From a virus (Duplodnaviria; Caudoviricetes): a stretch of DNA of 62,609 bases. Below the pieces are notes generated by a model. That model saw nothing but the letters and a program-made list of their open reading frames with translations. It was not told the DNA's origin and did no database searches. Shown in pieces: positions 2,544 to 55,871 of this stretch. Both the position numbers and the translations under genes were made by a program. Within the stretch, counting starts at the first letter, position 1. Each line of letters begins with the position of its first letter. The DNA lies in the IMG/VR virus record IMGVR_UViG_3300044691_000253, positions 1 through 62,609 of that record, one strand, 5' to 3'.

Positions 2544-2836
2544 CAACGCCTCCATGCATAGCCGAGAGGCTGGCCGAGCGCGCCAAGCTCCAGCGGATAG
2601 ATATCGTCGGTCGGGATGTTGCACCATACCGGCTCGACATCGTCGCGGCTCTGGATCAATCGACACCGCGCCATGTAAATTTTCTGGGACCCGGGGATGT
2701 ACTTCGTCTGGCATCCGAACTCGACAAGCTCCCACACATTTTTGAGCACGTGGGTCTCGGCCATGCAGCCGCGCATCTCATATTCGATGACGATCTTGCC
2801 GAACATCCTCATCTTGTCGATGAACCCGATCTTCAC
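2543..2836 (-). CDS. hypothetical protein
   Basis: GTGA and TGATG overlaps within the operon. Confidence 0.55.
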   Translation of the reverse strand: MKIGFIDKMRMFGKIVIEYEMRGCMAETHVLKNVWELVEFGCQTKYIPGSQKIYMARCRLIQSRDDVEPVWCNIPTDDIYPLELGALGQPLGYAWRR

Positions 2837-3021
2837 CTGTTGCACTCCCTGTCCTTGCGAAGACACGAGCCAATCGGCAGGAACCAAAAATCGTTGCCGA
2901 GCGTGCGATGGCACTCGCACGTGTAGCCGTGGTCGTCGCGCTCTTGTCGGGGCAACATGGTGCGCTGCTCTGTGTCCGGCATGTGCAGAATTTTTCCGTC
3001 GCCGAGTTTCACTTCACGCAT
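2833..3021 (-). CDS. hypothetical protein
   Basis: GGAG RBS, operon packing. Confidence 0.5.
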   Translation of the reverse strand: MREVKLGDGKILHMPDTEQRTMLPRQERDDHGYTCECHRTLGNDFWFLPIGSCLRKDRECNR

Positions 3022-3155
3022 CGCATCACTCCCGTGACCCACTCAAGGTACCGTGTCGTCCCGACGAGTATCCACGGCAGGATCAAGACGAGGCCAGCCA
3101 TAACAGCGGACATGATGGCAGTGTAGCGCACCCAAAATTTTACTTCGCCGCGCAT
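3009..3155 (-). CDS. small membrane protein
   Basis: Single hydrophobic helix; GGAGG RBS. Confidence 0.5.
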   Translation of the reverse strand: MRGEVKFWVRYTAIMSAVMAGLVLILPWILVGTTRYLEWVTGVMRCVK

Positions 3156-3340
3156 CGCAGCCTCCGATCTTCGTCCAATGCAAGCTCCAGCCGTTGCAGC
3201 CAATCATCTAGGAAGCGATGATGACGATCCAGCGCACAATCGATGCTGCTGGCCGCGCTGCTTATGGTTTCGGCCGCCGATCGCATCGTGCTGGCCGCGC
3301 TGCGAACATCCTCGGCTCCATGGAGATGAATGCTATCCAT
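3140..3340 (-). CDS. hypothetical coiled-coil protein
   Basis: IHLHGAEDVRSAASTMRSAA; operon packing. Confidence 0.6.
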   Translation of the reverse strand: MDSIHLHGAEDVRSAASTMRSAAETISSAASSIDCALDRHHRFLDDWLQRLELALDEDRRLRCAAK

Positions 3341-3749
3341 GATGCCGCCCCCGCTTCAATCTCGCTACCGCTTCATCTTGAGTGAGACCGTGCTTCGTTG
3401 CGTATCGCATCAGACTGGCACGCCGCTTGTCGCGTCGGACCTCATATATCACTTTCGCATCCTCCACCGGGATGCCCTTATGGGAAGCGATATGCGATAT
3501 CTTTGCTTCGATCTTCGCGCGCTTGGCCGCTCGTGCTATCGATGGAGGCGGACCCTCGACCCGGGGCTCCGGGGTCGGCGGATCACAGGGCTCGCCAGTG
3601 ATGGTGCAAGTTGCGCCGGGGTATCTGATCGCAAGGACCTCGCGACATCTCTCCAGCGCGCTCTCGACAGACAAGTGCTGCATCTTAGTCGAGAACGGGC
3701 CTAGCGCCTTCTTGCCCTTCCGGATGTCGTATGTGACAGCGATCCACAT
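3333..3749 (-). CDS. hypothetical protein
   Basis: ATG 3749 just after the upstream stop; basic C-terminus. Confidence 0.55.
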   Translation of the reverse strand: MWIAVTYDIRKGKKALGPFSTKMQHLSVESALERCREVLAIRYPGATCTITGEPCDPPTPEPRVEGPPPSIARAAKRAKIEAKISHIASHKGIPVEDAKVIYEVRRDKRRASLMRYATKHGLTQDEAVARLKRGRHHG

Positions 3750-19234: not shown

Positions 19235-19511
19235 AGAGACGATCCGCGATCTCGCGGCGCGTGGCGAGCTAAGTCACATATCGTTGTCGCCGTCGCAAAA
19301 CGGAAAGCTCTGGCGCGCATCGTTCACAATGTGCTCGAAGTTCGGCGTCAGTTTCGGCGAGGACGAGGACCCGATCAAAGCCTTGATGCTCGCATGCACG
19401 ACGGCGAAGATGGCGCCGAGGCACGTCGGGAAGCACTCGCCGATCATCGATCACAACCCGCACGAGGTCAGCGCTCCCCCGGTGACCGAGGATGTCGAAG
19501 ACCTGATGTAG
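19215..19511 (+). CDS. hypothetical protein ending EDVEDLM
   Basis: GGAGG RBS; shared C-terminal motif. Confidence 0.65.
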   Translation: MSNANLEETIRDLAARGELSHISLSPSQNGKLWRASFTMCSKFGVSFGEDEDPIKALMLACTTAKMAPRHVGKHSPIIDHNPHEVSAPPVTEDVEDLM

Positions 19512-19548
19512 GATGCTAGTTGTTCGGATGTCGCGTCTGGGGTATTCT
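19511..19548 (+). promoter_or_regulatory. putative late promoter TGCTAG-N23-TAnnnT
   Basis: GGATGCTAGTTGTTC-N17-TATTCT; same geometry at four other sites. Confidence 0.75.
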
Positions 19549-19580
19549 CTGCCCCAGATTTGACATCCGGGAGGCCGATC

Positions 19581-19820
19581 ATGGCCAAGCTCACTGCCAA
19601 GAAGCGCGACGCGCTGCCCAAGGGGAAGTTCGCGCTCCCCGGCAAGATGGGCAAGCCCGGGAAATACCCGGTCGAAGACAAGGCCCACGCGGCCGACGCG
19701 AAGGGCCGTGCGACCCAGATGGTCGCCAAGGGCAAGCTATCCCCCGCGCAGGCGTCGAAGATCAAGCACAAGGCCGACGCTGTCCTCGGGAAACACGATT
19801 GCTCTTACCACAACGCCTGA
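19581..19820 (+). CDS. DUF6582-like small basic protein
   Basis: LTAKKRDALP..KFALPG...KYPVEDKAHA..A..RA.Q. Confidence 0.75.
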   Translation: MAKLTAKKRDALPKGKFALPGKMGKPGKYPVEDKAHAADAKGRATQMVAKGKLSPAQASKIKHKADAVLGKHDCSYHNA

Positions 19821-19846
19821 CCGCACAAGCTCAAAGGATTAGATCG

Positions 19847-20224
19847 ATGAAAGACCCATTGGGACACGGCAGCAATGCCGGAGCGCACGCCGCGGGCACC
19901 GTAAGCACGCCGAAGCTACAGCGTCGCCACTTCGAGGCGATTGCCGCGGACTTGAAGGCCAAGAACGCCTCGCCGGACGAAGTCAAGGCGATGGCCGACA
20001 AGCTCGCCACGACCAATCCCGGCTTCCGGCGCGATTTCTTCGTTGCTGCTGCGACCGGCGGCGATTATCGTTTCAAAGGACCGGGCAAAAATTCGGCAGC
20101 CGTGCAGAAGAAAGTGTCCAAATTGACCCCGGTGCAGTCAGAGAACGCGCCGTTCCATTCGCGGCTCGGCAAAGCAGCGGGGCACTCGTACCTTGATCCC
20201 CACGATCCGAGGGCAAAACGATGA
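19847..20224 (+). CDS. MKDPLGHGSN-tagged protein 1
   Basis: AAGGA RBS; tag followed by RRHFEAIA...NPGFRRDFF domain. Confidence 0.8.
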   Translation: MKDPLGHGSNAGAHAAGTVSTPKLQRRHFEAIAADLKAKNASPDEVKAMADKLATTNPGFRRDFFVAAATGGDYRFKGPGKNSAAVQKKVSKLTPVQSENAPFHSRLGKAAGHSYLDPHDPRAKR

Positions 20225-20544
20225 AGGACGCGCTCGGACATGGAAGCAATGCGACCGGCGCTGCCGCGCTCGCCAGCGGGCCGAAGTCAGCGCCCGTACC
20301 CGTTCACTCGGCGATGGCCAACGTCATCCCGGACAAGGCGTGGCGGCTGACGATGCCGCTTTCGAACTACACCGGACAGGTTCAAGACATGCTCGGCATG
20401 TGGGCCGGTACTCAGACCCCAACGAAGCTAACCGCCGCTGAGACCAAGCAAGTCAGCGACGCATACGAGAGTGGCTTTCGGGACTGGCGAACCTTGGCGG
20501 GCAACCTACATTCACAGCGCCACGCCTCCGGGGCACCCCACTGA
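20221..20544 (+). CDS. MKDALGHGSN-tagged protein 2
   Basis: ATGA overlap; tag plus LASGPKSAPVPVHSAM. Confidence 0.8.
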   Translation: MKDALGHGSNATGAAALASGPKSAPVPVHSAMANVIPDKAWRLTMPLSNYTGQVQDMLGMWAGTQTPTKLTAAETKQVSDAYESGFRDWRTLAGNLHSQRHASGAPH

Positions 20545-20561
20545 GATGAAGGGTACCCAAG

Positions 20562-20744
20562 ATGGCCCGCAAGAAAAAGACGGCGAAAGAAATCAGTGAC
20601 GAAGTCGCGGCGGATGCACTACGCGGAGGCGGCCAGTCTGGCCCGATGCCTACGCATCCTGCAATGGCGACGACCGATCCCGACGCCGACGCAACCGATG
20701 CCGCTCAAGACGACGGCGACTTTGACGAGGATAGAACCCAATGA
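20562..20744 (+). CDS. small basic/acidic disordered protein
   Basis: RBS; PMPTHPAM motif. Confidence 0.65.
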   Translation: MARKKKTAKEISDEVAADALRGGGQSGPMPTHPAMATTDPDADATDAAQDDGDFDEDRTQ

Positions 20745-21136
20745 AGGACGCAAAAGGCCACGGTAGCAACACGGGCACGCAAGGCATGCGGCTCGTGAAG
20801 ACGCATGTGCTTGGTCCGCACTCGGCGAAGGTCTACAACAACCCGGAGTGGGGCGAGAAGGTCGTCAAGACTTTCCGCGACGGCGTCTATCAGCCGAAGA
20901 ACGATTATCACACTGACGACCTCGCCGACGCGCACGGCACCGCGATGTCGCAATTGAACCGCTGGAGCGATCAGGGTGCCAAGGCATCCCTTGCGAGCGG
21001 CCCGAAGTCGGCCCCGGCCCCTGTCCATGACAGTATGGCTGGCGGACACGGAAGTGACTGGAGCACCGGCCCAGCAAGGCAGTCGCAGCCGCAGCCGCAG
21101 GATGCATGGAGCAAAACCCCGGGCGGCGACCGATAA
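20741..21136 (+). CDS. MKDAKGHGSN-tagged protein 3
   Basis: Tag, then KVY..PEWGE..V...DYHTDD..DA..TA domain, then LASGPKSAPAPVHDSM. Confidence 0.8.
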   Translation: MKDAKGHGSNTGTQGMRLVKTHVLGPHSAKVYNNPEWGEKVVKTFRDGVYQPKNDYHTDDLADAHGTAMSQLNRWSDQGAKASLASGPKSAPAPVHDSMAGGHGSDWSTGPARQSQPQPQDAWSKTPGGDR

Positions 21137-21361
21137 GTGGCGCAGAGATTTCCAAAGCACTCGCACACGACCGGCGTCTCGATCTTGGTGCCACATTCGA
21201 AATTTACTCCAACGCCGACGATGTCGCCGTTGGAGATCGCGTTTCATAAAGGCCGCGAGGCGAAGCGTCTCGGGCGACCGGCGGATAATCCGCACAGCGA
21301 GTTTCTTTTGCCCAACGATGGGGCGCTCGCATCGGAGTGGGACAGAGGATACAATTTATGA
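21137..21361 (+). CDS. hypothetical protein
   Basis: AFHKGREA...NPH...EWDRGY (RMF-like spacing); fills the operon exactly. Confidence 0.55.
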   Translation: MAQRFPKHSHTTGVSILVPHSKFTPTPTMSPLEIAFHKGREAKRLGRPADNPHSEFLLPNDGALASEWDRGYNL

Positions 21362-21594
21362 AAGACCCATTAGGACACGGCAGCAATGGCAAGGGCGCGT
21401 TCGGCCCGGCCAAGCATCAGTTCAAGGTCGAGAAGCACATCGCTTTTCACGGCTTGACCGCCGCGGGCCAGAAGGTCACCACCACTGGCAACGTCTGGCA
21501 GAAGGTCGGCGCGAGCGGGCGCCGCGCTGTCGCGGAGAAGCTCGCGCTCTTCGAACGCATGGACAACAAAAACTCACGTGTGAGGATCAAATAA
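21358..21594 (+). CDS. MKDPLGHGSN-tagged protein 4
   Basis: GAGGA RBS, ATGA overlap. Confidence 0.8.
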   Translation: MKDPLGHGSNGKGAFGPAKHQFKVEKHIAFHGLTAAGQKVTTTGNVWQKVGASGRRAVAEKLALFERMDNKNSRVRIK

Positions 21595-21846
21595 ATGAAC
21601 ACCGCCGTTATCCCATCGGTCATCGCTCTCGCCGTCGTCGCGGCTCTTTCGTATCTTCACACATCCCCTGTTGCTGAGGCCCCTGTCCCGGAGCCCGCGG
21701 TCGTGATCCCCGCGCCGCCGACGCTGCCGACGAAGCCGACGATGCCGCCGGAGCCATTCGCGTATGCGGGGGCTGTTCTCCCGGCCTACGTCCCGACACC
21801 CAAACCTCATCCGCGACATCGGCACGCGAAAGTGTGGACGAAATGA
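21595..21846 (+). CDS. membrane-anchored Pro-rich protein
   Basis: N-terminal TM, Pro-rich tail. Confidence 0.6.
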   Translation: MNTAVIPSVIALAVVAALSYLHTSPVAEAPVPEPAVVIPAPPTLPTKPTMPPEPFAYAGAVLPAYVPTPKPHPRHRHAKVWTK

Positions 21847-22289
21847 AGGATGCACTCGGTCACGGCAGCAACGCGCACAACGCGGGCATCGCGAGCCTCG
21901 GCAAGAAGCTTGCGGTCTCGTCGAAGGTCATCAAGGTCGTCAAGAAAAATCCTTACGGCTTCTCGGTAAAACCACAGACCGGCGTGCAGCCCAAAGACGG
22001 CTATATGGTTTCACTGCCCGGACACTCGTTGATCCTCGATCCCAGCCATGTCACGCCCGACACGGTTTCGAGGTACGCGCAGACGTATGCGGACAAGTTC
22101 GCGGACCCGAAGGCGCATATCGGCGGATGGACAGACGGCAACACCGGCCTCACGCATCTTGACGTGTCGCACAACATCATGAGCAGGAGCGCAGCGGTCA
22201 AAGCCGGACGCGCAAATAACCAGATCAAAATCTGGGACGTGAAGCGCAAACGCGAGATCGACACTGGAGGGACCGGCGATGTTCACTAA
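21843..22289 (+). CDS. MKDALGHGSN-tagged protein 5
   Basis: Tag plus GF....G..P.DGYMVS...IGGW.D...G..HLDVS...A...G....Q..IWD domain. Confidence 0.8.
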   Translation: MKDALGHGSNAHNAGIASLGKKLAVSSKVIKVVKKNPYGFSVKPQTGVQPKDGYMVSLPGHSLILDPSHVTPDTVSRYAQTYADKFADPKAHIGGWTDGNTGLTHLDVSHNIMSRSAAVKAGRANNQIKIWDVKRKREIDTGGTGDVH

Positions 22290-22461
22290 AGGGGGACCAA
22301 CTGATGAAGACGCCGCAAAAACGTTGGCGAACGGCCATCCTAAAAGCCAGCCTCCGACCATTCATCAAAGCAGTGAAGTCCTACAAGGCAGTCCGGGCTC
22401 GGGCGAGGCTCCGGGCGCAGACGGACCGCCTACGACGGGCGCGGTATTAGGCCTCGGTTAG
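22279..22461 (+). CDS. small disordered protein
   Basis: GGAGG RBS; LANGHPKSQPPTIH resembles LASGPKSAPVPVH. Confidence 0.65.
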   Translation: MFTKGGPTDEDAAKTLANGHPKSQPPTIHQSSEVLQGSPGSGEAPGADGPPTTGAVLGLG

Positions 22462-22470
22462 CCCCAATGA

Positions 22471-22508
22471 GGATGCTAGTTGTTTGACGCCGTCAAGCCC
22501 TGTAAGCT
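22471..22508 (+). promoter_or_regulatory. putative late promoter
   Basis: GGATGCTAGTTGTTT-N17-TAAGCT. Confidence 0.75.
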
Positions 22509-22545
22509 TGGCGGCGAAATCACATCTGTGCGCGAGGGCTATATC

Positions 22546-22863
22546 ATGGTTGCAACTCATCTCGGCATGTCCGATCAGACTTCGACCAACATCGCCCGCG
22601 ATGGCGCGCCGAAGAAGACCCAGACGAACTTCCCGGTCAAGGAAGGCATGAAAAATCAGGTCACGGCCCTGAGCGGCGTCAGCCCGGCGAACCCGGGCGT
22701 CGGCCCCGACGCGGACCCGGCGAACCCGCTGAGCCCGTCTGCGAAGCTCAAGAAATTCCCCGATGCCCCCACCGCGTGGGGCATGAAGGATGCGCATGGC
22801 CAGTCGGCCAACGGCGACATCGGTCACAAGGTGCTCGCGGAGGCCGCGAACCTCGGGCGGTAA
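22546..22863 (+). CDS. small disordered protein with GM[SK][DN] repeats
   Basis: HLGMSDQ, KEGMKNQ, AWGMKDAHG. Confidence 0.7.
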   Translation: MVATHLGMSDQTSTNIARDGAPKKTQTNFPVKEGMKNQVTALSGVSPANPGVGPDADPANPLSPSAKLKKFPDAPTAWGMKDAHGQSANGDIGHKVLAEAANLGR

Positions 22864-22865
22864 AA

Positions 22866-23003
22866 ATGCTGATCATCAAGGTCATCAACCTCTGCTTTTT
22901 GGCCTTGATCTTCGCGATGCCAATTATGTATCCCAACGTTGAGGTGCGGGAGTATCCCAACGGACCCAAACTTCCACGAGAGGGAGATGAAGATGGTCGA
23001 TGA
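22866..23003 (+). CDS. small membrane protein
   Basis: One hydrophobic helix. Confidence 0.4.
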   Translation: MLIIKVINLCFLALIFAMPIMYPNVEVREYPNGPKLPREGDEDGR

Positions 23004-23286
23004 AGTATTTGTCGCCTCGCGCGAGAAGGCCGAGAATGCATACGGCCAGAACGGTTATCAGGGACCGTCGAGCGACCTTCCCGGACAGAGCACGCGGATG
23101 GCCCGCGACTTCGGTCTCGCGGCCGATCCGACTGCAAGCGCAGGCGACTGGCAGACCCGCAAGGTCGATGCCACGCCCATCGCGACGCACCCCGGCATGA
23201 AGGCCCGCGACAGCAAGATTGATTTCCCGACGAGCAACGCCCACCGCGCGACCAAGCAGGCCGCACCGGGATCGTTTCAGCGCTAA
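22993..23286 (+). CDS. small disordered protein
   Basis: GGAG RBS; PIATHPGMK. Confidence 0.7.
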   Translation: MVDEVFVASREKAENAYGQNGYQGPSSDLPGQSTRMARDFGLAADPTASAGDWQTRKVDATPIATHPGMKARDSKIDFPTSNAHRATKQAAPGSFQR

Positions 23287-23295: not shown

Positions 23296-23324
23296 AACGC
23301 GCATAATCTGAGATTATGCGCGTT
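23296..23324. repeat. perfect 14-bp inverted repeat upstream of terS
   Basis: AACGCGCATAATCT-G-AGATTATGCGCGTT. Confidence 0.9.
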
Positions 23325-23396
23325 TCCGTATAGGAGACCGCGGCGCCGCATGTGCGCGCCCCATCGACATGGTCGATGCTACTGGAGGATACCCGC

Positions 23397-24197
23397 ATGA
23401 GCGGCGATGCAGAGCTTGATGATTTGCTTGGCCCAGACCCGGCAGAGACCGAAGAGAAACTAGTTGACGAAGCACCGCCCCTCGATACCTCGGGCAAAGC
23501 CGTCCTAGCCCGCTCGCGCAGCTACCCGGTCAATCGCGCAGCGAAGAAAAACACCCCAGAGAATTTACGCCGAGCCCTATCCTACGTCGCCGAAGTCCCG
23601 GTCGGCGCGGATGTTGCGCGTCGCATGGGCATCAGCTACACGACGTTGAAGTATTGGCTCCAGAAATCGTTCGAAGGCGCACCGGGAGATGGCTTCGACA
23701 TCGTCATGGGCGACGACGATGAGAACGGCACCGAAGACAACACCGTGCGCTTCCATGAGGCGTGGGACGTGGCGATGATGGCAGGCGTCGAGCGCGTCGA
23801 GGTCGCGACGATCCGGCGCGCGACGGGCTACGACGAGGTGCTGACCTATCAGGGTCGCGTGCAGTATAAATATGATCCGCAGAAACTCGCGGATGCGCGC
23901 GATCTCGGCCTGCCCGAGTACGTGCCCGAGAATTATCTGCTCGATCAGTATAGAGCCCCTGTCCCGGAGACTGTCTACAAGATGGACCCGGACCTCGCGA
24001 TGTTCATCCTCAAGAGCCGCAAGCCGCAAGTCTACGGCGCGAAGGCCAGCTTGGACGTGAACGTCAAGGGCGGCGTGCTCGTCGTCGGCATGCGCGCGGT
24101 CACCTCCGAAGCGCTCAATGAACTCGAAGACAAATACCGCAAAGAGGGTCGGCCCGCCGTCACGTTTGAAGAAGGTGACGACGAGGAAGGCAAGTAA
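23397..24197 (+). CDS. terS: terminase small subunit
   Basis: HTH (VARRMGISYTTLKYW), RRATGY, DPDLAMFILKSRKPQVY; directly upstream of terL. Confidence 0.75.
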   Translation: MSGDAELDDLLGPDPAETEEKLVDEAPPLDTSGKAVLARSRSYPVNRAAKKNTPENLRRALSYVAEVPVGADVARRMGISYTTLKYWLQKSFEGAPGDGFDIVMGDDDENGTEDNTVRFHEAWDVAMMAGVERVEVATIRRATGYDEVLTYQGRVQYKYDPQKLADARDLGLPEYVPENYLLDQYRAPVPETVYKMDPDLAMFILKSRKPQVYGAKASLDVNVKGGVLVVGMRAVTSEALNELEDKYRKEGRPAVTFEEGDDEEGK

Positions 24198-27571: not shown

Positions 27572-27819
27572 GTGATCCCGCTGGACCACACATCGTAAAG
27601 ACCTTTCACGAGGCCATCGATATTCTCGATCAGTGCGAGCCGCAAATTCGCGACCTGATCGAGACCCACCTCATGGACGTGGCGGGCGTCAACAAGACGA
27701 AGGTCAGTCACGCCATGCTGACCAAGGACGAATTGACGAAGCACATCGTTGCGCTTCGTCATCACCACATCAAGGCCGCCTTCCGCCATCTGAGAGAGCA
27801 TCTCCCCAGTGACATATGA
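27568..27819 (+). CDS. hypothetical His-rich protein
   Basis: ATGA overlap with portal. Confidence 0.6.
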   Translation: MSDPAGPHIVKTFHEAIDILDQCEPQIRDLIETHLMDVAGVNKTKVSHAMLTKDELTKHIVALRHHHIKAAFRHLREHLPSDI

Positions 27820-28777
27820 TCCATCAGAGGCCCGCAACAATCACGGCGAGTTCGGCACGACCGACGTAGCCTTGAAGGGGCCGCAAGTTGGCGGCGCGAG
27901 CGCGGTCGTCACTGAGCGGCCGATCAACACGGCGGCCCACAAAGGCGCGGCCACGCCCGAGGAAGCGCAGGCGCAGGCCGCCCTCGTCGCGGACGGGGCG
28001 AAGCCGCTTGAAGGTTTGCCCCAGAAGCCCATCGAACTCGCGGGCCAGTGGTATGTGCCCGGCCCCATCGGCCGCCTACGGGACGCGGCCGACAGCTACA
28101 TGAAGTCGGCCGGGCTGCCGTATTCGCCGCCAACCGACTATGCGAAGCTCGACAAAGATCGCGCCGCGAAGATCGCCGATGAATACGACAAGATGAAAGA
28201 TGATCCGGCCGGTCCCGCCGTCAAGGCGAGCTACGATGCCCTCGTCAAGGAAACGCTCGCGCAGTGGGAGACGATCAAGCAGACCGGCTTGCAAGTCGAG
28301 TGGGTCAAGCCCGGGCAGAAGGACCCCTACGCGCTGTCGCCGCGCCTCGCCGCGATGGACGTGAGCGAGAACAATCATTGGTGGGGATTTCCCACCGACC
28401 TCGGCTACGGCTCCGGCGTCGGCAAGAGCAACACTGGCGAGACGAACCCGATGCTCAAGGCGACCGGCGAAGTGATCGATGGCCGCAAGGTCGTCGCCAA
28501 CGATGTCTTCCGCATTGTGCATGACATGATGGGTCATCTCAAAGAAGGCAATGGCTTTCGTGGCGAAGGCGAAGAGAACGCTTGGCGCTCGCATGCGTCG
28601 ATGTATTCGGACCTCGCTCGACCGGCGATGACAAGCGAGACGCGTGGACAAAATTCGTGGGTCAACTACGGCCCGCACGGGACAACCAACCGCACCGCCG
28701 ACGCCGAGCACACGATCTTCGCTCCGCAGAAGATCGGGCTCATGCCGGAGTGGACTGAGAATGAGGGCCGCAAATGA
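27809..28777 (+). CDS. putative internal virion protein with HDxxGH zincin-like domain
   Basis: N-terminal YDPSEARNNHGEF; NDVFRIVHDMMGH...GEENAW..H...ETRGQNSWVN. Confidence 0.7.
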   Translation: MTYDPSEARNNHGEFGTTDVALKGPQVGGASAVVTERPINTAAHKGAATPEEAQAQAALVADGAKPLEGLPQKPIELAGQWYVPGPIGRLRDAADSYMKSAGLPYSPPTDYAKLDKDRAAKIADEYDKMKDDPAGPAVKASYDALVKETLAQWETIKQTGLQVEWVKPGQKDPYALSPRLAAMDVSENNHWWGFPTDLGYGSGVGKSNTGETNPMLKATGEVIDGRKVVANDVFRIVHDMMGHLKEGNGFRGEGEENAWRSHASMYSDLARPAMTSETRGQNSWVNYGPHGTTNRTADAEHTIFAPQKIGLMPEWTENEGRK

Positions 28778-31029
28778 CCTTCGACCCAAATGAAGCAAGA
28801 GATCAGTCCGGGCGCTGGACCCGCGGCGACACGGCGACCGGCAGGGACGGCGAGGTCGAGCGGCACCTCATTGATCCGCGCGTTGTCGATGTCAGCGGTG
28901 ACGAATGGAATAAGAAAACGGCCGAGCGGCTTGAGCGGGAGTATGCTGCTGTTCGCCCCGAACTAGACGCCCTTGCAAACGAGGGCGTCGAGAAGGGTGC
29001 AAGCGTGGCCCTCGGGAAAAGCGGCGACGACGATAACGAGGATGATACGCCCATCGTCCCAGAGCAGTGGGATGCTCTGACCGGATCGGAACAGGAAGAG
29101 GCCGAGCAGCACTATATCGACAGCCATATCGACAGCGAGAAGGACTACGTTGTCCAAAGCTGGCATGACGATCTTGGTGGCGCGCTGTACGAAGCAAAGC
29201 ACATGCTCGCCAAAGACGACGACTTTAAGAGCGAGTGGCTGAGTGGTTATCTCTCTGCCCGCGACGAAGATGGTGACCCACGTATCCCGTTCAAGGCTGA
29301 TGATCTCTTGGGCGCGATCAATATCGAAGCCGGGGATGACGATGCTGATCCGGAGATCACGTTCGACGAAAAATACTTGGACAAGCCGGATGTTCTCGGC
29401 TCAGAAAACCAGTTGTCTTTTCCCGGTATTGAGCCCCAGAAAGGTTCGGATTTTCTCACGCCCAAGATGCGTGAAGAGATCATTAAAGACCTCATTGCGA
29501 AATTCAACGAAGAGGCCAAGTCCAAAGCCGGCGATATCGAGCCTCCCGAGTACCTCAGCGAGGAAGCGAATACCAACGTCCATGAGGCATGGAACGGTAT
29601 GGACGAGGATGAGCAGTTCAACTACGCCATGAAGAATGTGGACAGTCTGAGTGAGCAGGCAGCCGCCGCCGCAGACGCTCCGCTCAAGTCCGGCGACCTG
29701 ACGCACCTTGCATGGCCCGCCGAATTTGACCCCCTCAATAAGACCTCCGGTACGGACTACCAGAGAACTCAAGCGCTCGCGAAGTACATCGCGGACAGGC
29801 GCGGCGCGCAACTTATCACAGAGCGCGTCGGTAACGCGAAATGGAAGCCGCGCGATCAGTTCCCCGGCTCGGACGATGACTACAACAAGCTGTATGAGCG
29901 TCCCGACAGCGTCGGCCACAAGAAAGATCAGGCGTGGACTGACCGCATGATGAAAGAGCTTCAATCGGCAGATAGCCGATTGTGGTCCGGATGGAAGGGA
30001 AGCTCGACCAACGCGGAGGGGCGGCTGTTGCAAGTCGCATCGGCCGATGAACTCGGCGGGCGCATCCGCGACGCAAAACAGTCCGTCACGAGCCAGCTAT
30101 TCAGCGGCGAGGCAACGGTTTCGGATAGCAAGTACAAAGCGAAGCTCATTCTATCGGATACCGGCGACTACTATTTGCCGGAGCTTAAAGCGGCGGCCCA
30201 GAAGTACATGGACGAGAACAAGTTCTCAGTGGACGAGCCCAACGTGTCCAAAGTGCCGCAGTTGAAAGCGGAGGACGTGACCGTTGAGGGTAAGAACCCC
30301 TTCACTTTGCTGCCCGACGTGAAGATCGAAAAGAACGGGGCCGCCTCGACGACCGTCAGCCCGACAGTGGCCAATGGTTGGAGTGGCACTGCAAACAACG
30401 CGCCCGAGGGCATCAACAAGAAAGAGAGCATTGAATACGCGAACAAGGCATATGCGGCTATCGGCGGATACGAGGGCGTCAAAGCTGCGATCCGCGCGAA
30501 ATGGGAGACGACGCAATATCTGCTCGACAAGGCAGACATCCCGATCGTGCAAGCGTATCGGGGCATCAACATGCCGCACAAACTCATCGGCGTCTCAAGC
30601 GAAGGCGAGTTTAACCCGCCGATCTCCGGACTTGTGAAAACATCATACGCCGGAGAAGTCGATATGACTGAAATCCCGGTTGGGGCCTCGATCCACACCG
30701 CCTCGGGAAAGACGATCACCAAGACAAGCGAGGATAACCCGAGCTACTATGAGGCCCACGGGTACAAGGCGGGCATCGGCACGTGGAAATTCTCTCAGGC
30801 CGTCGCGGACACACAGTCGCGCATTGTGCTGCGCACCGAGGTCCCGCGCACGGCGGTCGTGTCGATCCCGGCGTATGGCATCAACGTGAAGAGCGAGCAG
30901 GAAGTCGTCGTCGTCGGTACGGGCTGGAAAGGCTGGGATGCTTGGTCCGGTCGCGCACCGACGTTCGAAGAAGTCCCGATGCGACATAAGGGGGCTCCGG
31001 CCCCGGAAAAACAAAAGGCAGCCGCATGA
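28774..31029 (+). CDS. putative internal virion protein with C-terminal ADP-ribosyltransferase-like domain
   Basis: N-terminal FDPNEARDQSGRWT; acidic body; YRG (30556) and SEQEVVV (EQE at 30895). Confidence 0.65.
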   Translation: MTFDPNEARDQSGRWTRGDTATGRDGEVERHLIDPRVVDVSGDEWNKKTAERLEREYAAVRPELDALANEGVEKGASVALGKSGDDDNEDDTPIVPEQWDALTGSEQEEAEQHYIDSHIDSEKDYVVQSWHDDLGGALYEAKHMLAKDDDFKSEWLSGYLSARDEDGDPRIPFKADDLLGAINIEAGDDDADPEITFDEKYLDKPDVLGSENQLSFPGIEPQKGSDFLTPKMREEIIKDLIAKFNEEAKSKAGDIEPPEYLSEEANTNVHEAWNGMDEDEQFNYAMKNVDSLSEQAAAAADAPLKSGDLTHLAWPAEFDPLNKTSGTDYQRTQALAKYIADRRGAQLITERVGNAKWKPRDQFPGSDDDYNKLYERPDSVGHKKDQAWTDRMMKELQSADSRLWSGWKGSSTNAEGRLLQVASADELGGRIRDAKQSVTSQLFSGEATVSDSKYKAKLILSDTGDYYLPELKAAAQKYMDENKFSVDEPNVSKVPQLKAEDVTVEGKNPFTLLPDVKIEKNGAASTTVSPTVANGWSGTANNAPEGINKKESIEYANKAYAAIGGYEGVKAAIRAKWETTQYLLDKADIPIVQAYRGINMPHKLIGVSSEGEFNPPISGLVKTSYAGEVDMTEIPVGASIHTASGKTITKTSEDNPSYYEAHGYKAGIGTWKFSQAVADTQSRIVLRTEVPRTAVVSIPAYGINVKSEQEVVVVGTGWKGWDAWSGRAPTFEEVPMRHKGAPAPEKQKAAA

Positions 31030-32546: not shown

Positions 32547-32780
32547 ATGGCAGTAGAAAATCCTTGGCTCGCCGAAGGTTGGAACCTCACTGCGCAGGGC
32601 GCGTACATTCGCAAGTACGGGCTCGAAGTCGCGAAGACCAAAGCGAAACAGGCGGGCACTCGGATCGGCGACCTCCAGCCAAAACCTCTTGCGGCGCTCA
32701 TCAAGCAGTACGTCATGATCAAGCATGTCTCGGATGACACCGCGACGCAAGGTAGCTCGGGCAGTGGACCTCCAACCTGA
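32547..32780 (+). CDS. small paralog of the scaffold C-terminal domain
   Basis: NPWLAEGWNLTAQG...AKQAGTRIGD vs scaffold NPWSKAGWNVTKQG...AAQAGCKIGD. Confidence 0.75.
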   Translation: MAVENPWLAEGWNLTAQGAYIRKYGLEVAKTKAKQAGTRIGDLQPKPLAALIKQYVMIKHVSDDTATQGSSGSGPPT

Positions 32781-34600
32781 TGGCACGACCTCCCCGCGAC
32801 GGCGACTTCTATATCAACAACGCGAACCAAGATTTTTGGCTGCGCGAAAATGGCGCGTGGGTCCGCAAGGGCAACATCCGTGACGAGGGCACGTCCGGCC
32901 TCGTCGGCGTGCAGCCTATTCTCAATCTGGGGTTTGCCCAAGCCTCCGCTGTGCAGCGCATCCGCCTGCTTGCTCCGGGCGCGCAGGCGATGGGCTTTGC
33001 TACCGCGGTTGCTGTGGATCGCATCCGCCAACTATCCGCGTCGATGACCCTCGGCTATGGCATGCTCTCGCCGCTCGACCGGCTGCGCGCGGTCGCCGCG
33101 GCTATCGATGTCGGCATGGGCCTAGCTGCCGTCGCGGACGCGATCCCCTCGGCCGTGATCAACCTCGCCGCTGCAATGGGTTTCGGCTCCATCGTCAGTC
33201 CTGTCGTGGTGGGACGCGAACGTGACCTCGTTGCTCCGATGAACTTCGGCTCCGACGTGTCGGCGGTCCTCGTTCTTCGCGTTCGGCAACTGACGGCGTC
33301 CATGGCGTTGGGCGTTGACGAGACAGCGGCCATCCAACAGATCAAGGCGGTCGCGGCGTCGATGGCCATGGGCTATGACGAGACCGTAGCACTTCAACGG
33401 ATCAGAGCCCTCACCTCATCGATTGCCGTGGGCTACAGCGAAGCGGCAGCGGTCACCCGTAGTCGCCAGCTTACGGACAGCGTCGCAATGGGCTTCTTGC
33501 AGACTTCGGCCATTCAACAGATCAAGGCCGTCACGGCGTCGCTTGCCATGGGCTACAGCGAAGCGGCGGCGGTCACTCGTATTCGCCAGCTTACAGACAG
33601 CGTCGCAATGGGCTTCGCGCAAGCTTCGACGGTGTCACTCACGGCCCCGTCCGGGAATGTCGTGATCGGGCTCAGTGTGTCACCGTTTACCCTCTGGTAC
33701 GATAGCAACCTCTCATTGCTGACTACCTCGTGGACAGTTCCGGCCGCTTCCATCCAAGCTATAGAATTTAGCCCTGACAAATCGTTGCTCGTCATCGCAA
33801 CAAGCTCTGCGCTGTTCCGATACGATATGACTGGAGCTACTCCGGTGTATAAAGGCGCGATGACTTCTCCCCCGGCTTGGGCTCACATAAGCGCCCTCGC
33901 TTTCAGCGCTGATAGCACGCGTCTCGCGGTCGTGGATAGTCAACTCTCACCGTTCACTTGGGTCTTCAACACGAGCACGTGGACTACAGTTACGGCTCCG
34001 ACCGGGCCAACCGGCACTGGCGTCGCGTTCAACGGCGCAGGGGCTAGTAAGATCGCGGCCCCTATCAGCAGCCCAGTCACGCTTAAGCTGTTCGACACCC
34101 CCGGAATGACTGCATCAGCCACGCAGCCCGGCACACAACCGACGCTGTCTAACGCATACTCCAACATCGATTTCTCGCCAGATGGAAATTATCTAGCGGC
34201 AAACGGCGTCGCGTCGCCGTCCCCTATGCGAGTATGGCAAATGAGCGCGCTGAGCGCGCCGCTCGCTAATCCGGCGTCTATGCCGCACGCCAGCGATAGC
34301 GTGATCGGAAAAGCACTGCGCTGGAACGCGCAGAGCACTAAGTTCGCGGTTTGCGACAACTTCGGGACGTATGGCTATCGCGTATCAGGGACAACAGTGA
34401 CGCAAGATCAGACGATCAGCACGATCCAAGCCGTTGCTCCGGCGTACCGATCAGATGGGGCCAAGCTTTACTTACTTAACGCGAGCGCCCCTCGCTTCCA
34501 AGTTTTCAGCATTAGCGGCAACACATACACCGCTGATACTAACCCGACATCCCAACCAGCGTCCGGGTCAAGCCCAAACTGTATCGCAACCTCCCTATAG
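32780..34600 (+). CDS. putative head appendage protein: ~20-aa repeats plus beta-propeller
   Basis: DGDFYIN...W...GNI; repeats like RIRQLTxSxAMGF; WD40-like FSPD, FSAD, FSPDG blades. Confidence 0.7.
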   Translation: MARPPRDGDFYINNANQDFWLRENGAWVRKGNIRDEGTSGLVGVQPILNLGFAQASAVQRIRLLAPGAQAMGFATAVAVDRIRQLSASMTLGYGMLSPLDRLRAVAAAIDVGMGLAAVADAIPSAVINLAAAMGFGSIVSPVVVGRERDLVAPMNFGSDVSAVLVLRVRQLTASMALGVDETAAIQQIKAVAASMAMGYDETVALQRIRALTSSIAVGYSEAAAVTRSRQLTDSVAMGFLQTSAIQQIKAVTASLAMGYSEAAAVTRIRQLTDSVAMGFAQASTVSLTAPSGNVVIGLSVSPFTLWYDSNLSLLTTSWTVPAASIQAIEFSPDKSLLVIATSSALFRYDMTGATPVYKGAMTSPPAWAHISALAFSADSTRLAVVDSQLSPFTWVFNTSTWTTVTAPTGPTGTGVAFNGAGASKIAAPISSPVTLKLFDTPGMTASATQPGTQPTLSNAYSNIDFSPDGNYLAANGVASPSPMRVWQMSALSAPLANPASMPHASDSVIGKALRWNAQSTKFAVCDNFGTYGYRVSGTTVTQDQTISTIQAVAPAYRSDGAKLYLLNASAPRFQVFSISGNTYTADTNPTSQPASGSSPNCIATSL

Positions 34601-39131: not shown

Positions 39132-39138
39132 GCCGAGA

Positions 39139-41722: not shown

Positions 41723-42243
41723 AGCTGTCGTTGCAGATCGACAAAGAGGCGTACAAGAAGAGCGTCGATGAGGTCCGTGATCGGTTCTCTCAGGCGTTCT
41801 CGGTCGCGGAGAACATGGTCGCGTCCATGATCCGCCAAGAGGTGACGGCGGACATCAAGGGCGCGGGCAAATTCAGCGACAAGTACCTCGCCGGGCTGAG
41901 CGTAACGGTCGAGGATCACACGATCACTACTGAGCTTGACGCGCCCGGCGCATCGCTCTTTGAGACCGGAGGCGTCATTCACGGCAGGCCGCTCCTATGG
42001 CTTCCGATCAGCGGCACCGACGCCGAGGGTATTCAGGCGAGCGACTACGGCGGGCAACTGTTTTCGGTCAACCGCACGAGCGGCGTCCCGCTTCTATTCT
42101 CGGTCAAGGACCACGCACCAAAGTATTTCGGCGTCCCCAGCGTAACCATCCCGAAGCTATTCCACATCGAAGAAATCCAGAACCGCGTAGCGGACGGGCT
42201 CCCGGAAATCTTCGAGAACGCACTGGGGGCCGTCAATGCCTGA
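41719..42243 (+). CDS. neck/tail completion protein
   Basis: FETGGVIHGRPLLWLP motif; GTGA overlap. Confidence 0.65.
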   Translation: MKLSLQIDKEAYKKSVDEVRDRFSQAFSVAENMVASMIRQEVTADIKGAGKFSDKYLAGLSVTVEDHTITTELDAPGASLFETGGVIHGRPLLWLPISGTDAEGIQASDYGGQLFSVNRTSGVPLLFSVKDHAPKYFGVPSVTIPKLFHIEEIQNRVADGLPEIFENALGAVNA

Positions 42244-44707
42244 GCTTGATCCAATTGTCGCGAAAATCCTGCTCGAAGGCGACGACGAGCTTATCAAGGC
42301 GTTTGAGAAGATCGGGGTCGATGGCGCCGAGAAAATCGGCAAGCTCTTCGAGGCGACCCAGAAGTCGGGAAGCGCACTTGAGGCCCTCGGGGGCTCACTC
42401 GGCATTGTCGAGGGCGCACTCTCTGCCGCGACCGCAGCCCTCATCGTGTTCGTCGAGCAGCAGACCGAGCTATCCCAGAAGACTGAGTTGCTTGCCGAGG
42501 CGTTCGGCACCACCTCCAGTCAGCTTCAACAGGTAGAACAGGCCTTCGCGTCCGCTGGCGTCAAGGTCGAGCAGTTTGAGCGGTTCGCTAACCGTCTCAC
42601 GGTCACCATCGCTCGCGAATGGCCCCAGATCGCGGAGAGCATCAAGAATTACGCGACTGAGAACGACGCGGCGACGCTGCGCGTCTCCAGCGCCATCCTC
42701 CGGGTGCGCGACGCCCAGAACGCCCTCGCCGACAACGCGGAGGACCGCTCCGCGCAGATGTCGAATGACAACAACGCGCTAGAGGCCTCGTATCTCAAGC
42801 TCCAGTTCGCCGCGCAGCATGCTGCTCAGGAACAGATCAGCGCGTTGCAGTCAGTGCGGGGCGCTCAATTGAGCGTCCTCTCCGCCGAGCAGCATCTTGC
42901 CGAATTGGAGGGCCGCCCACCTTCGGCGGCGGAAAAACAGAGCCTCGCTGTCGCGCAGGCGCATCAGGCCCTTGATGTCGCGCGCAAGGCGGAGCGGGAT
43001 GCGCAGATCGCCGCGCGAGAGCAAGCTGCTGGCGCGGCCCTCAAGCAGGCGCAGTTGGAACAGGCATACGACGACATCGCGCGCAAGGCCGCGAAGAATG
43101 CACGTGACGACGCCGAGAACCGCGTCAAGGATGAGAACCGCGTCAAGGAAGCCATCATCGCCCGTGCCGAGGCGGAGGATAAGGCCGAGAAGTTCACGCT
43201 GACCAACATCAAGAGTATCCGTGACGCACTTGACGGCGTGGTCACGGGCCAAAAGGGAGCCGCCACGTCCATCGACCTGACCAAGGTGTCGGTCGAGAAC
43301 TTGACGAAGGCCCTGATTGCTCAAGCGGGAGAGAGCGAAAAATCCGGTCGGCCGCCGAAGGGGTTCGATACACTGATCTCCCTCCGCAATACGCTGACGG
43401 CGGCGACGGAAAACCAGATCACGCAAGAGCAGAAGCTTGCCATCATCAACAAGCTCGCAGGCACGTCGATGCAGGCGCTCGGGGCGTCGGCCGCCGAAAT
43501 CTCCGCTGTGCTGCAAGATGCCAGCATCGATCTTAAAAAATTCGACAAGGCGGCGGAAGAGCTAAACACCGATGAAACCAAGAACAGGATCAAGTCGTTC
43601 CGGGGTGCGCTCGCCGAGCTCCATCTAACCCTTAGCATCCTGTCGCAGAAGTTCGCCATCGCGATCTCCCCCGCGTTCACCTCGTTCCTGAAAACCATTC
43701 AGGAAAGTCTTGAGAGCAACACTGGCACCCTAAAGCTCTTCATTGACGGCATCTCTTCGCTTGGCACCGCGATCTCGACAGTGTTCGGTGAGATCAGGAA
43801 AATCGCCACAAGTGCCACCGATGCACTGGACAAAGCTTTCGGTCTCGAAAAAGGCCGAGCGATGCAGATTTTGCTCGGGGCCATCGTCGTCGCTGTCGGG
43901 AGGTTCGCCAGCGCGTGGGTAGGCGTCCCCCTCGTGATCGCGACGGTCGTCACGTCTATCGGGTACATCTCCGACCATCTGAAAGAGGTCCAACAATGGA
44001 TTGAGAACAATCGCACGAAGTTCGTCATCATGGGCGCGGCCATTGCGGGCATCGCTGCGCTCTTCGCGCCGTGGACAGTCGCCCTTGGCCTGATCATCGG
44101 CGCAGTCGTTTTGATCTATGAAAACTGGGACAAGATCAAGGCCAAGGTCAGCGAAGTTTGGGCGGCTGTTACGGACAACGCCGTCGTGCAGTGGTTCAAA
44201 GAGTTCATCGATAACCTGAAATCGATCTATGATTGGTTTGGCAGGCTCAAGCAGGCTGCCCCGAAGTGGCTCGGCGGAGGCGGGGGTGCGGCCACACCCA
44301 ATCCGGGGGCCTCGTCGGACCCGGCTCACGCTGCGGAAGGCCCGGGCTTTGCGACCGGCGGCGCGGTAGACGGTCCGGGCACGACCACAAGCGACAGCAT
44401 CTTCGCGCGCCTCTCGCGCGGTGAGTTCGTCATCAAGGCGGCGGCGGTTCAAGAGTACGGCGCGGGGCTCTTCCATGCCTTGAACAACATGCAGATGCCC
44501 GGCTTCGCGTCCGGCGGCCTCGTGCCGTCGCCTGTGCGTATGGGCGGCGGAGCAATAGCCCCGGCGACGAGCACGCTCAACCTGTCGCTCGACGGGCGAT
44601 CGTTCGATGGCTTGAAGGGACCGAAGAGCACCATCGACGACCTCTCCAGCTTCGCGGTCTCGCGCCAGACTTCGGCGGCGGGCAAAAACCCCTCATGGGT
44701 AGGATAA
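42236..44707 (+). CDS. tape measure protein
   Basis: 823-aa helical Ala-rich protein, hydrophobic segments, FATGG.V.GPGT.TSDSI.ARLS.GEFV. Confidence 0.92.
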   Translation: MPELDPIVAKILLEGDDELIKAFEKIGVDGAEKIGKLFEATQKSGSALEALGGSLGIVEGALSAATAALIVFVEQQTELSQKTELLAEAFGTTSSQLQQVEQAFASAGVKVEQFERFANRLTVTIAREWPQIAESIKNYATENDAATLRVSSAILRVRDAQNALADNAEDRSAQMSNDNNALEASYLKLQFAAQHAAQEQISALQSVRGAQLSVLSAEQHLAELEGRPPSAAEKQSLAVAQAHQALDVARKAERDAQIAAREQAAGAALKQAQLEQAYDDIARKAAKNARDDAENRVKDENRVKEAIIARAEAEDKAEKFTLTNIKSIRDALDGVVTGQKGAATSIDLTKVSVENLTKALIAQAGESEKSGRPPKGFDTLISLRNTLTAATENQITQEQKLAIINKLAGTSMQALGASAAEISAVLQDASIDLKKFDKAAEELNTDETKNRIKSFRGALAELHLTLSILSQKFAIAISPAFTSFLKTIQESLESNTGTLKLFIDGISSLGTAISTVFGEIRKIATSATDALDKAFGLEKGRAMQILLGAIVVAVGRFASAWVGVPLVIATVVTSIGYISDHLKEVQQWIENNRTKFVIMGAAIAGIAALFAPWTVALGLIIGAVVLIYENWDKIKAKVSEVWAAVTDNAVVQWFKEFIDNLKSIYDWFGRLKQAAPKWLGGGGGAATPNPGASSDPAHAAEGPGFATGGAVDGPGTTTSDSIFARLSRGEFVIKAAAVQEYGAGLFHALNNMQMPGFASGGLVPSPVRMGGGAIAPATSTLNLSLDGRSFDGLKGPKSTIDDLSSFAVSRQTSAAGKNPSWVG

Positions 44708-53709: not shown

Positions 53710-54017
53710 ACTACAAAGACGTTGACCCGAAGGTGAAGCGGCTCTTTCCGTGGGCACTCTTCCTCGTGCTCGCTGCGCTGTTCGCGTTCGCGGCGACGCG
53801 CGTGCATGCCGAAGAGGATGTTTGGGCCTGCTATGGCTCGGCGCGGTACGAAGCCATGTCTTCGGCGTGGACCCCATGCAACGAGATGAGCAGAATTTGC
53901 ATCAAGGTCCGCGAGTACATTTCGCAGGGCCACACCATCGAAGAGGGCCGCGTGCTCGCGCAGTCCAAACACATCCCTCAGTGGATCATCAAGAAAGCTG
54001 AGAGGTGCCTGCCATGA
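53706..54017 (+). CDS. secreted or membrane-anchored Cys-containing protein
   Basis: Hydrophobic helix plus VHA cleavage-like site. Confidence 0.55.
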
Positions 54018-55021: not shown

Positions 55022-55860
55022 ACGAAGATACCCGGGTCATAATCTGTTGCTACGAAGGCGACATGCATCAACTAAACCTTGGCGCATACCTCCAGCACGG
55101 CTGCCCTGTTACTGTCCTCTCACCCGATGACAGCCGAGCAGTAATAGATCACCCGGGTATCGACTGTAAGTTCGGGGGCAAGCGCGCCTATACCGGACAG
55201 GACAGTCTTGATCGGCAGCACGAGCACTTGAAGCTCATGCTGACGTACCCGGAGAACTTCTTCCTGATCCACGACAGCGATAGTGTCTTGCTCGACGCAA
55301 AAATCCCCGACTACCTATACGCCGAGCCTGATGTGGTTTGGTCAAACCAAGTCGATGACGGCATCCCTGAGCATCAGGCGACCTTCCCGGAGGGATGGCC
55401 GCACATCGCTCTCCAGCCGCCGTATTTCCTCAGCCGGAAATCCATCGAAGCCATGGTCGTGGTTGGCGATGACCCGCGCGTCAAGGCAACGCCGGTCATG
55501 CCGTTCATCGACTACTATATGGTGCAGTTGACCGTAGTGGCCGGACTTCCGTACAAGCGGTTTGCTGACTGCCTGTCGTGTCCGATCACGTGCGACCCGA
55601 GGCAGAGAGACAATTGCAATGCGGGCCAGATCGAAACGTATAAGAGCGGCTACCAAATCGCGATGAACGCCGTCTTGCATGGTGGTGCGACGGTCCTCCA
55701 TTCAGTGAAAGACCCGAGCGCTGTTGAAGAGTTCCTACAGGCGCGTCGGCAATTTCTCGTGGGAAATCCCAACCCTGTTCCGCGTATGTCGCCGCCCCCG
55801 ACAGTCGGCGGACGCCGACGGGGCCGTGTGATCTATGGCGGCCCCGGCCTCAAAGCTTAA
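55018..55860 (+). CDS. putative GT-A glycosyltransferase
   Basis: [10 protein letters not shown] (DxD), PYFLSR, HSVK; ends GLKA. Confidence 0.6.
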
Positions 55861-55871
55861 AAGGACTGCCC

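Follow-up and report, generated by a model that had tools for sequence, protein, structure and literature searches.

A selected N-terminal peptide on diverse small phage proteins and its candidate role as a module-start handle for head loading

A linear virus record from IMG/VR (IMGVR_UViG_3300044691_000253, 62,609 bp; we refer to this whole stretch as the window) derives from a soil-type phage and has a CheckV completeness of approximately 60%. Upstream of its terminase genes lies a cassette of small genes, five of which encode proteins that begin with a common peptide, MKD[AP][LK]GHGSN (the tag). The analysis supports the tag as a real N-terminal element under selection at the peptide level on otherwise diverse proteins, and the same motif recurs, internally and in repeated copies, in long proteins that are associated with phage head genes. 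The reading that we favor, to which we give roughly an even chance, is that the cassette is a polyvalent head protein split into separate genes, with the tag serving as a module-start handle for head loading.

A six-frame search of the window for MKD..GHGS gave exactly five matches, all on the + strand, spread over three frames and each, as judged by eye, preceded by a purine-rich Shine-Dalgarno-like stretch (for eight fixed residues, the number expected by chance is far below one). The string GHGS occurs eight times in the six frames: in the five tags, once more inside the gene at 20741, and twice elsewhere on the - strand. The five genes with the common start (19847, 20221, 20741, 21358 and 21843) are those named in the original prediction, which also noted that the codons of the tag vary between copies (we read AAA/AAG, GAC/GAT, GGA/GGC/GGT and CAC/CAT) and that a related MKDAHG lies within the open reading frame (ORF) at 22546-22863 (we locate it at 22783); all of this was confirmed. 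Its description of the tagged proteins as unrelated domains holds for nine of the ten pairs, which show no significant blastp similarity once the first 10 residues are removed, and does not hold for the remaining pair, the 20221 and 20741 proteins, which share the 19-residue motif LASGPKSAPxPVHxxMA (E = 1.5e-8). In the 20741 protein there are also a phrog_7884 module and a LASGPKSAPAPVH motif, with GGHGSDW lying internally and DAWSKTPGGDR at the C-terminus. The 19847 protein combines a module running from RRHFEAIAA to NPGFRRDFF with a C-terminal NAPFHSRL...SYLDPHDPR motif and has no match in Pfam or PHROG; none of the five tagged proteins of the window matches Pfam.

A search for the N-terminal pattern across phage proteins, which had been proposed as a check, found the tag to be widespread. 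A back-translated tag pattern retrieved 59 stretches from IMG/VR (approximately 50 distinct contigs, as counted from the match list), and 58 of these 59 loci encode the tag peptide (L048 matches the DNA pattern without the peptide); most hold two to six clustered copies. Across the six frames of the 59 loci and the window, KD..GHGS occurs 252 times, every time at a start, where it is preceded by M (201 matches), MA (36), MP (6), MS (2) or a GTG/TTG start (7). The 244 complete tagged ORFs correspond to 189 unique proteins of 42-205 aa, in which six residues are invariant and the extended consensus is M(A)KDA[LK]GHGS[NDE]xRGG. Each fixed residue of the tag uses several codons, and serine is drawn from both of its codon boxes (AGY in 151 and TCN in 41 of 192 unique contexts), indicating that selection acts on the peptide. 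A profile built from 150 tagged proteins over their first 33 residues was compared with 1.84 billion representative proteins and found 403 representatives at E <= 0.001; among the best 150 of these 403, 131 carry one copy at residues 1-4 (median length 119 aa, maximum 256 aa), two carry an offset copy that possibly reflects a miscalled start, and 17 carry two to four internal copies in proteins of 216-1707 aa. Homologs that have a source name are all called 'hypothetical protein', and a search for the motif strings found nothing relevant among the papers searched (supplementary files were outside the search). A scan of genome contigs gave 15 single matches (eight true GHGS motifs, six of those N-terminal), mostly in contigs of Alphaproteobacteria and Hyphomicrobiales metagenome-assembled genomes, which offers a hint of the hosts, probably Alphaproteobacteria of soil.

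The proteins with internal copies connect the tag to head-associated polyproteins. Their copies are typically spaced by approximately 70-230 aa, the size of the stand-alone proteins (a few gaps of 380-850 aa occur in the largest), and the junction that precedes the copies is conserved: of 45 sites, 30 have V, I or L at position -4, 33 have K or N at -2, and 30 have A at -1. In one such protein, P0123, an XkdF prohead-protease domain (57.2 bits) is followed by motif copies at residues 181, 300 and 531 (used as a query, P0123 found no related locus in IMG/VR). Another, P0143, comes from a phage with a complete genome of 197 kb, in which two more motif proteins are encoded next to it; the motif genes of this phage lie directly 5' of the gene for a polyvalent protein of 1600 aa (L082:13508-18310), which scores 119.7 bits for ART-PolyVal and weakly for MuF. 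This polyvalent protein matches ART-PolyVal in three stretches and also has a 2'-5' RNA-ligase-type domain and a weak match to an intein. MuF is a neighbor in three loci (L080, L082 and L089); in L089 a MuF gene (30.7 bits) and an XkdF-like ORF with a weak score (16.9 bits, below cut-off) precede the gene for a 318-aa motif protein, which is followed by scaffold-like and capsid-like genes. In this same L089 protein (2581-3537) a YPIxxxxxLxNAIRAxGR motif, like that of p79, is joined to an internal KAKDALGHGS; p79 is the first, untagged, gene of the window cassette, and the fusion links it to the tagged modules.

The XkdF family is present in the 197-kb record that has internal copies and was found in none of the seven records with stand-alone arrays (the window, G001, G002, G004, G005, G010 and G011; G002 is 100% and G005 90% complete). 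HK97-type S78 proteases were found in none of six records searched. The window, approximately 60% complete as noted, has no match to PF14550 or PF04586, and within the window, where alone these were sought, there was also no match to ClpP-type or Mu-type protease families or to DUF2213.

What the tag is attached to varies widely. The largest single-linkage cluster of tagged proteins has 107 members, among them three from the window; its members are joined through short common motifs (LASGPKSAPxPVHxxM, AHSxGVxxVG, NAPFxSRL...SYLDPHDPR and DAWSxTPGGDR among them) and not by one domain. Two further window proteins belong to separate families in this clustering: T1 (tagged gene 5; in relatives, T1 is the conserved last tagged gene before terS) and T2 (tagged gene 4; 12 members in the loci). 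In a Pfam scan of 150 tagged proteins, four match ART-PolyVal (two that were checked singly passed the cut-off of 31.2 bits, at 49 and 39.2), there are single weak matches to Arr-ms, ParB_N and GNAT, and one tagged family has an HHEIGH motif (by eye) resembling that of HExxH peptidases. An AlphaFold2 model of T1 (predicted local distance difference test [pLDDT] 82.9) has an alpha/beta domain at residues 28-140, preceded by a disordered stretch at residues 1-20 (pLDDT under 50). Compared with the PDB the model has no clear match (best Foldseek E 0.18; best VIA-align Z 4.2, with a root mean square deviation of 3.5 over 72 residues), and it matches domains within BFVD models of phage proteins of 433-1102 aa (E 1e-10 to 1e-7), including ones named Zeta-toxin-domain and XkdF. 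A search of the ESM Atlas gave no usable match for the 21358 and 19847 proteins. The tagged proteins are almost uniformly basic, with an isoelectric point (pI) above 8 in 179 of 189 and a median of 9.9. A complex prediction with the scaffold, the capsid protein and T1 residues 1-45, run without controls, scored 0.00, a value that speaks neither for nor against an interaction.

The tag can also be exchanged for others. We drew T1 homologs from a collection of 5.8 billion proteins; among the matches listed there are 120, of which 104 begin with the KDAxGHGS tag, nine with MA[FY]NPNQPRxKxGxW and six with M(A)WSDExRxA; the remaining one is truncated. Judged from these N-termini, three tags can stand interchangeably ahead of the T1 domain, depending on the lineage. 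The second of them heads p322 and p751, the two proteins encoded after the portal gene of the window, as well as their homologs. The C-terminal domain of p322 is fused to a T1-type domain in other phages: in Mycobacterium C1 phages a single gene encodes both a T1-type domain and the p322 domain. A metagenomic phage has the p322 domain at the end of an 847-aa post-portal protein. In L080, six consecutive genes on the reverse strand (98-352 aa), flanked by the portal gene and a gene with a MuF match (50.8 bits), carry the second tag, and the third tag occurs on small genes inside the cassettes of L011, L018 and L035. None of the tags is present on the three large post-portal proteins of MW202675. 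The motif of the L080 array is M(A)(F/W/Y)(D/N)Px(Q/K)(P/H)PRxPxGxxxGG(E/Q)(W/F), a second type of tag array, within the head module. The N-terminal motif shared by p322 and p751 can be written (M/V)T(Y/F)DP(S/N)EAR(N/D)xxG, and it resembles the C-terminal SYLDPHDPR motif of tagged proteins.

The cassette is further tied to the head genes by a promoter-like word. The original prediction placed the cassette behind the same promoter motif as the capsid genes, and this was borne out: exact copies of AGGATGCTAGTTGTT stand at 19510, 22470 and 39138 and a copy with two mismatches at 35268, approximately 100 nt 5' of the major capsid ORF, and the copy at 39138 adds the tail genes to the set. At three or fewer mismatches the word has five matches in the window, against 0.63 expected (none of 100 shuffles reached five). 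The four + strand copies align as TTGTT(T/C), 17 nt and TAnnnT-like hexamers, resembling a sigma-70-like -35/-10 pair. In this form (GATGCTAGTTGTT, 17 nt, TAnnnT) the element precedes the cassette, the capsid gene and the tail genes, and one further copy is located within the cassette. The placement of the cassette directly upstream of terS needs qualification: the cassette does precede terS, but approximately 1 kb separates the last tagged gene from it (23352), an interval that holds three to four small untagged ORFs and the second copy of the promoter word.

Around the tagged genes, gene order is kept in relatives. It runs from p79 through a variable number of tagged genes to p74, T2, optional further tagged genes and T1, and then to p60, p105, terS, terL and portal (coordinates of the window genes are given in Table 1). 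In 26 loci a p79 homolog is the gene immediately 5' of the first tagged one, and 29 of the 59 loci have homologs of terS and terL. The set of tagged genes differs widely between close relatives, and tagged genes have been inserted elsewhere in late operons: between the portal gene and a p322 homolog in L001, and immediately 3' of homologs of the 42236-44707 and 44714-45178 genes in the tail region of five loci (L007, L016, L027, L034 and L052). A tape-measure-like gene is among those that such insertions follow in relatives.

On the sum of these associations, the best-supported role for the tagged proteins is that of internal head proteins delivered with the DNA, because they are tied to the prohead protease, to MuF and ART polyvalent proteins, to post-portal genes, to late promoters and to insertions in late operons, and because they are small and basic. 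Encapsidation, cleavage at the junctions and the action of the handle as an addressing element are what we infer from these sequences. In the model of a split polyvalent head protein, each small basic module would be translated alone and begin X-K-D-A/P-x-G-H-G-S-N/D/E-x-R-G, where X would be either Met itself or, if Met is removed, the Ala, Pro or Ser that follows it. In XkdF-type phages the handle instead lies inside long polyproteins and marks every module start, behind an aliphatic-x-K-A junction, and a single polyprotein would probably be loaded into the procapsid and then cut at the junctions. In the window lineage, where no such protease was found, each module has its own start codon exactly at the handle, so that its mature N-terminus would be the same as after cutting of a polyprotein. 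The head-assembly machinery would recognize the handle by docking to a procapsid component, and the modules (ADP-ribosyltransferase, HExxH peptidase-like, ParB-like and T1 domains, and many disordered, motif-rich proteins) would leave the head with the DNA at infection. The original prediction had proposed a new packaging signal on interchangeable domains. The selected N-terminal peptide, the shared promoter word, the cargo-like content and the ties to the head module uphold it in part; what has to be revised is the nature of the tag, which appears as a module-start motif of the polyvalent-protein class, internal and repeated in polyproteins, and as one of at least three interchangeable N-terminal tags.

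Several observations weigh against this model. The cassette of the window lies outside the head module, before terS. No Pfam family at E <= 0.01 was found for 144 of the 150 scanned tagged proteins, so the label of effector rests on a minority of them, and the 19847 and 21358 proteins have no tblastn match in 50,697 GenBank phage records. Basic charge in small phage proteins often has other causes. The correlation with the protease rests on few lineages, and the match in G007/G008 is below cut-off (16.9 bits); the incompleteness of the window record means that absence of a protease from it is not proven. Moreover, when a protease-scaffold fusion is cleaved, its C-terminal part does not usually stay in the capsid, and fusion to XkdF therefore argues for presence in the procapsid and not for delivery.

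The alternative that survives best is that the handle is a short linear motif acting in the cytoplasm, where it would dock many late or delivered phage proteins to one common host or phage factor (for instance a chaperone, an enzyme that modifies them or an adaptor of a protease), any association with heads being incidental. The location of the handle in a disordered N-terminal stretch, the many other short motifs common to tagged proteins (typical of proteins that dock peptides) and the position of the window cassette all agree with such a motif, which we nevertheless consider unlikely: it leaves unexplained the fusion to a prohead protease and the insertions in head and tail operons, as well as the swap with the post-portal tag and the uniform basic charge.

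Improbable, in our estimation, is an assembly role, in which the tagged proteins would be scaffold-like or core-forming parts that are either lost at maturation or kept as a DNA-condensing filler. Scaffolds are often fused behind an XkdF protease, as the motif is in P0123, and the L089 motif protein stands between a protease-like and a scaffold-like ORF; the tagged proteins are also basic and partly disordered (the Atlas model of the 19847 protein has a mean pLDDT of 0.44). The window, however, has a scaffold gene of its own (phrog_206), tagged families include enzymes (ART-PolyVal), and the wide variation of the tagged-gene set between close relatives is unlike that of core parts.

The internal copies, behind a conserved junction that resembles a cleavage site, together with stand-alone arrays in records without the protease, could also mean that the handle has no function in the split genes and merely survives from ancestral polyproteins, in which it formed the P' side of a protease site. 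A relic would decay, whereas six residues of the tag are invariant in 189 proteins despite synonymous turnover and the start codon always falls exactly at the motif; this origin is accordingly disfavored, and we hold it to be quite improbable. Still less credence can be given to the shared start as an expression device, acting in the RNA or in the nascent chain to set translation initiation or coupling. Four of the five tagged starts in the window do form an ATGA overlap with the stop of the preceding ORF and Lys is the second codon, but it is the amino acids that are conserved, serine being drawn from both of its codon boxes, and the same peptide is found far inside long proteins. Hardly tenable is the reading of the five proteins as ordinary paralogs of one family, an outcome that the original prediction had named as one that would tell against it and that was not found: three of them do fall into the single-linkage cluster of 107, but that cluster is held together by short motifs, nine of the ten pairs show no significant similarity without the tag, and T1 and T2 stand apart.

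The model can be placed among known systems. The internal proteins of T4 are described as diverse and as sharing only a capsid targeting sequence (CTS; PMC3012670). As in the accounts of the T4 CTS on the internal proteins and Alt, we find an N-terminal peptide of approximately 10 residues on small, diverse proteins of a variable locus, an ADP-ribosyltransferase as one cargo type, and apparent expression with head genes (PMC3012670, PMC5512222); a short conserved N-terminal peptide on otherwise unrelated small proteins of one locus is present in the window. The handle probably differs from the CTS in sequence, and it does differ in doubling as an internal, repeated module boundary and in having three exchangeable classes; the phage, too, is of siphovirus type, with a separate scaffold and a Gp13-like capsid protein, and a T4-type scaffold core or protease is not apparent in it (no search was aimed at that protease family).

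Polyvalent proteins have been proposed to be packaged and injected (PMC5512222). The tagged proteins resemble those defined by Iyer, Burroughs, Anand, de Souza and Aravind (2017) in repertoire (ART-PolyVal, HExxH peptidase, ParB-like and T1 domains, with ART-PolyVal in tagged relatives and the T1 domain inside large phage proteins) and in genomic context, namely the neighborhood of portal, terminase and MuF genes. The defining feature of that class, two to 15 effector domains in one polypeptide, is lacking in the window, because each module there is a separate gene (single modules of 78-148 aa); it is found in the relatives with internal copies, which are true multi-module polypeptides beside the 1600-aa polyvalent protein. 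The handle itself did not come up in a search of the 2017 paper that was not aimed at it. The MuF proteins (SPP1 gp7/Mu F) and polymorphic toxins likewise unite, according to PMC5576092, a head-incorporation element with variable effector domains beside the portal, and the array of the second tag class between portal and MuF in L080 adds to the likeness. The tagged proteins have no Phage_Mu_F match in Pfam, and the addressing element here would be a peptide of approximately 10 residues and not a folded domain. P0123, with its protease domain ahead of three motif-delimited modules, and the junction with Ala at -1 and an aliphatic residue at -4 recall XkdF/Peptidase_S78_2 fusions; a protease in the same phage, expected for an XkdF substrate, was found neither in the window (at its completeness of approximately 60%) nor in the six other stand-alone-array records. 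Encapsulin cargo loading offers a further parallel, in that short Gly/Ser-rich peptides dock diverse cargo inside an HK97-fold shell, on its inner face; such peptides usually stand at the C-terminus, and their sequence is not that of this handle. The model combines addressing of the CTS type with polyvalent proteins.

If the handle loads capsids, it would provide a sequence rule for recognizing delivered phage proteins (early counter-defense and takeover factors) in metagenomes, and its distribution already covers at least 403 clusters of proteins. A giant polyvalent protein and an array of tiny genes would then be two forms of one system, and a ten-residue tag would be available for packing chosen proteins into siphovirus-type heads, as the CTS is for T4. 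Even without head loading, the tagged proteins are a large unannotated family that ties small phage genes to head-associated polyvalent proteins. We tentatively extend the model to tailed phages at large, as a generalization that falls somewhat short of an even chance: they may possess a portable head address system that marks small basic proteins for loading and delivery, with at least three interchangeable handles (KDAxGHGS, (F/Y)(N/D)PxQPRxxxGxW and WSDExRxA), in which the alternation between polyprotein and gene array would be set by an XkdF-type protease.

Table 1. Coordinates of the cassette genes and neighboring features in the window
Feature	Coordinates	Strand	Description	Matches and homologs
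Promoter-like element before cassette	19510..19552	+	AGGATGCTAGTTGTT, 17 nt, TATTCT-like hexamer; exact word, putative function	
p79	19581..19820	+	Untagged, basic, 79 aa; first cassette gene; KYPVEDKAHAADAKGRA motif	phrog_16160 (E 1.9e-21)
Tagged gene 1	19847..20224	+	125 aa; MKDPLGHGSN; pI 10.2	
Tagged gene 2	20221..20544	+	107 aa; MKDALGHGSN; LASGPKSAPVPVH motif	
Untagged ORF	20562..20744	+	60 aa; acidic tail	Homologs in 7 loci
Tagged gene 3	20741..21136	+	131 aa; MKDAKGHGSN	
p74	21137..21361	+	Untagged conserved ORF before the 78-aa tagged gene	Homologs in 20 loci
Tagged gene 4 (T2 family)	21358..21594	+	78 aa; MKDPLGHGSN; pI 10.8	
Untagged ORF	21595..21846	+	83 aa; hydrophobic N-terminal stretch, proline-rich tail (by eye)	One weak homolog
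Tagged gene 5 (T1 family)	21843..22289	+	148 aa; MKDALGHGSN	phrog_3170
p60	22279..22461	+	Untagged, 60 aa; LANGHPKSQPPTIH motif	Homologs in 15 loci
Second copy of promoter word	22470..22484	+		
p105	22546..22863	+	Conserved, untagged, between tagged genes and terS; internal WGMKDAHGQSANG	Homologs in 36 loci
Untagged ORF	22994..23286	+	Start uncertain (22939 TTG or 22994 ATG); DATPIATHPGMKARD motif	Homologs in 7 loci
Inverted repeat	23296..23324	.	13-bp perfect repeat between cassette and terS; T-run on - strand only	
Terminase small subunit (terS)	23352..24197	+		phrog_4044, phrog_309
p322	27809..28777	+	Post-portal; GTG start, then TYDPSEARNNHGEF; second tag class	
p751	28774..31029	+	Second post-portal protein; MTFDPNEARDQSGRW; second tag class	

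Among the untagged members of the cassette, p105 has an internal WGMKDA[NH]GQS motif, or a near variant of it (MRDA/MVDA), in 12 of 24 alignment rows (by eye); this motif resembles the tag and is never N-terminal.

Downstream of the cassette, terS is followed by terL (24197) and portal (25820), and then by p322 (27809, 322 aa) and p751 (28774, 751 aa), neither of which has any family (p751 has no match in Pfam or PHROG). Next come p183 (31026), with a fragment-like match to part of phrog_241, a 'head morphogenesis' family, the scaffold (31614, the phrog_206 protein), a WD40-like protein (32780), a head protein (34847) and a Gp13-like major capsid protein (35376). In this region the terS, portal, p322, p751, scaffold and capsid products are acidic, TerL has a pI of 7.6 and p183 is basic (pI 10.2). 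TerL of the window has approximately 65-68% identity, at the DNA level, to TerL of RDJL-, Xp12- and PaMx28-type siphoviruses. Two of the TerL relatives, RDJL3 and Variovorax VBv52, were inspected for a cassette: VBv52 has no similar one before terS, and in RDJL3 terS lies at the end of the record.

Two other regions of the window deserve mention. The WD40-like protein (p606; 32780-34600, 606 aa) is a beta-propeller-type product encoded between the scaffold and capsid genes, and tblastn found no match to it among GenBank phages. In related phages, the first approximately 40 residues of p606 alone are kept, a pattern suggestive of a conserved anchor to which a variable domain of the head surface or of a fiber is attached; p606 was considered as a receptor for the tag and dropped, as these residues alone are kept in three of five tag-bearing records. 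Finally, several ORFs of approximately 280-340 aa at 54005-57682 have Rossmann-type N-termini and resemble sugar-nucleotide dehydratase/epimerase genes, which would be auxiliary cell-surface sugar genes.

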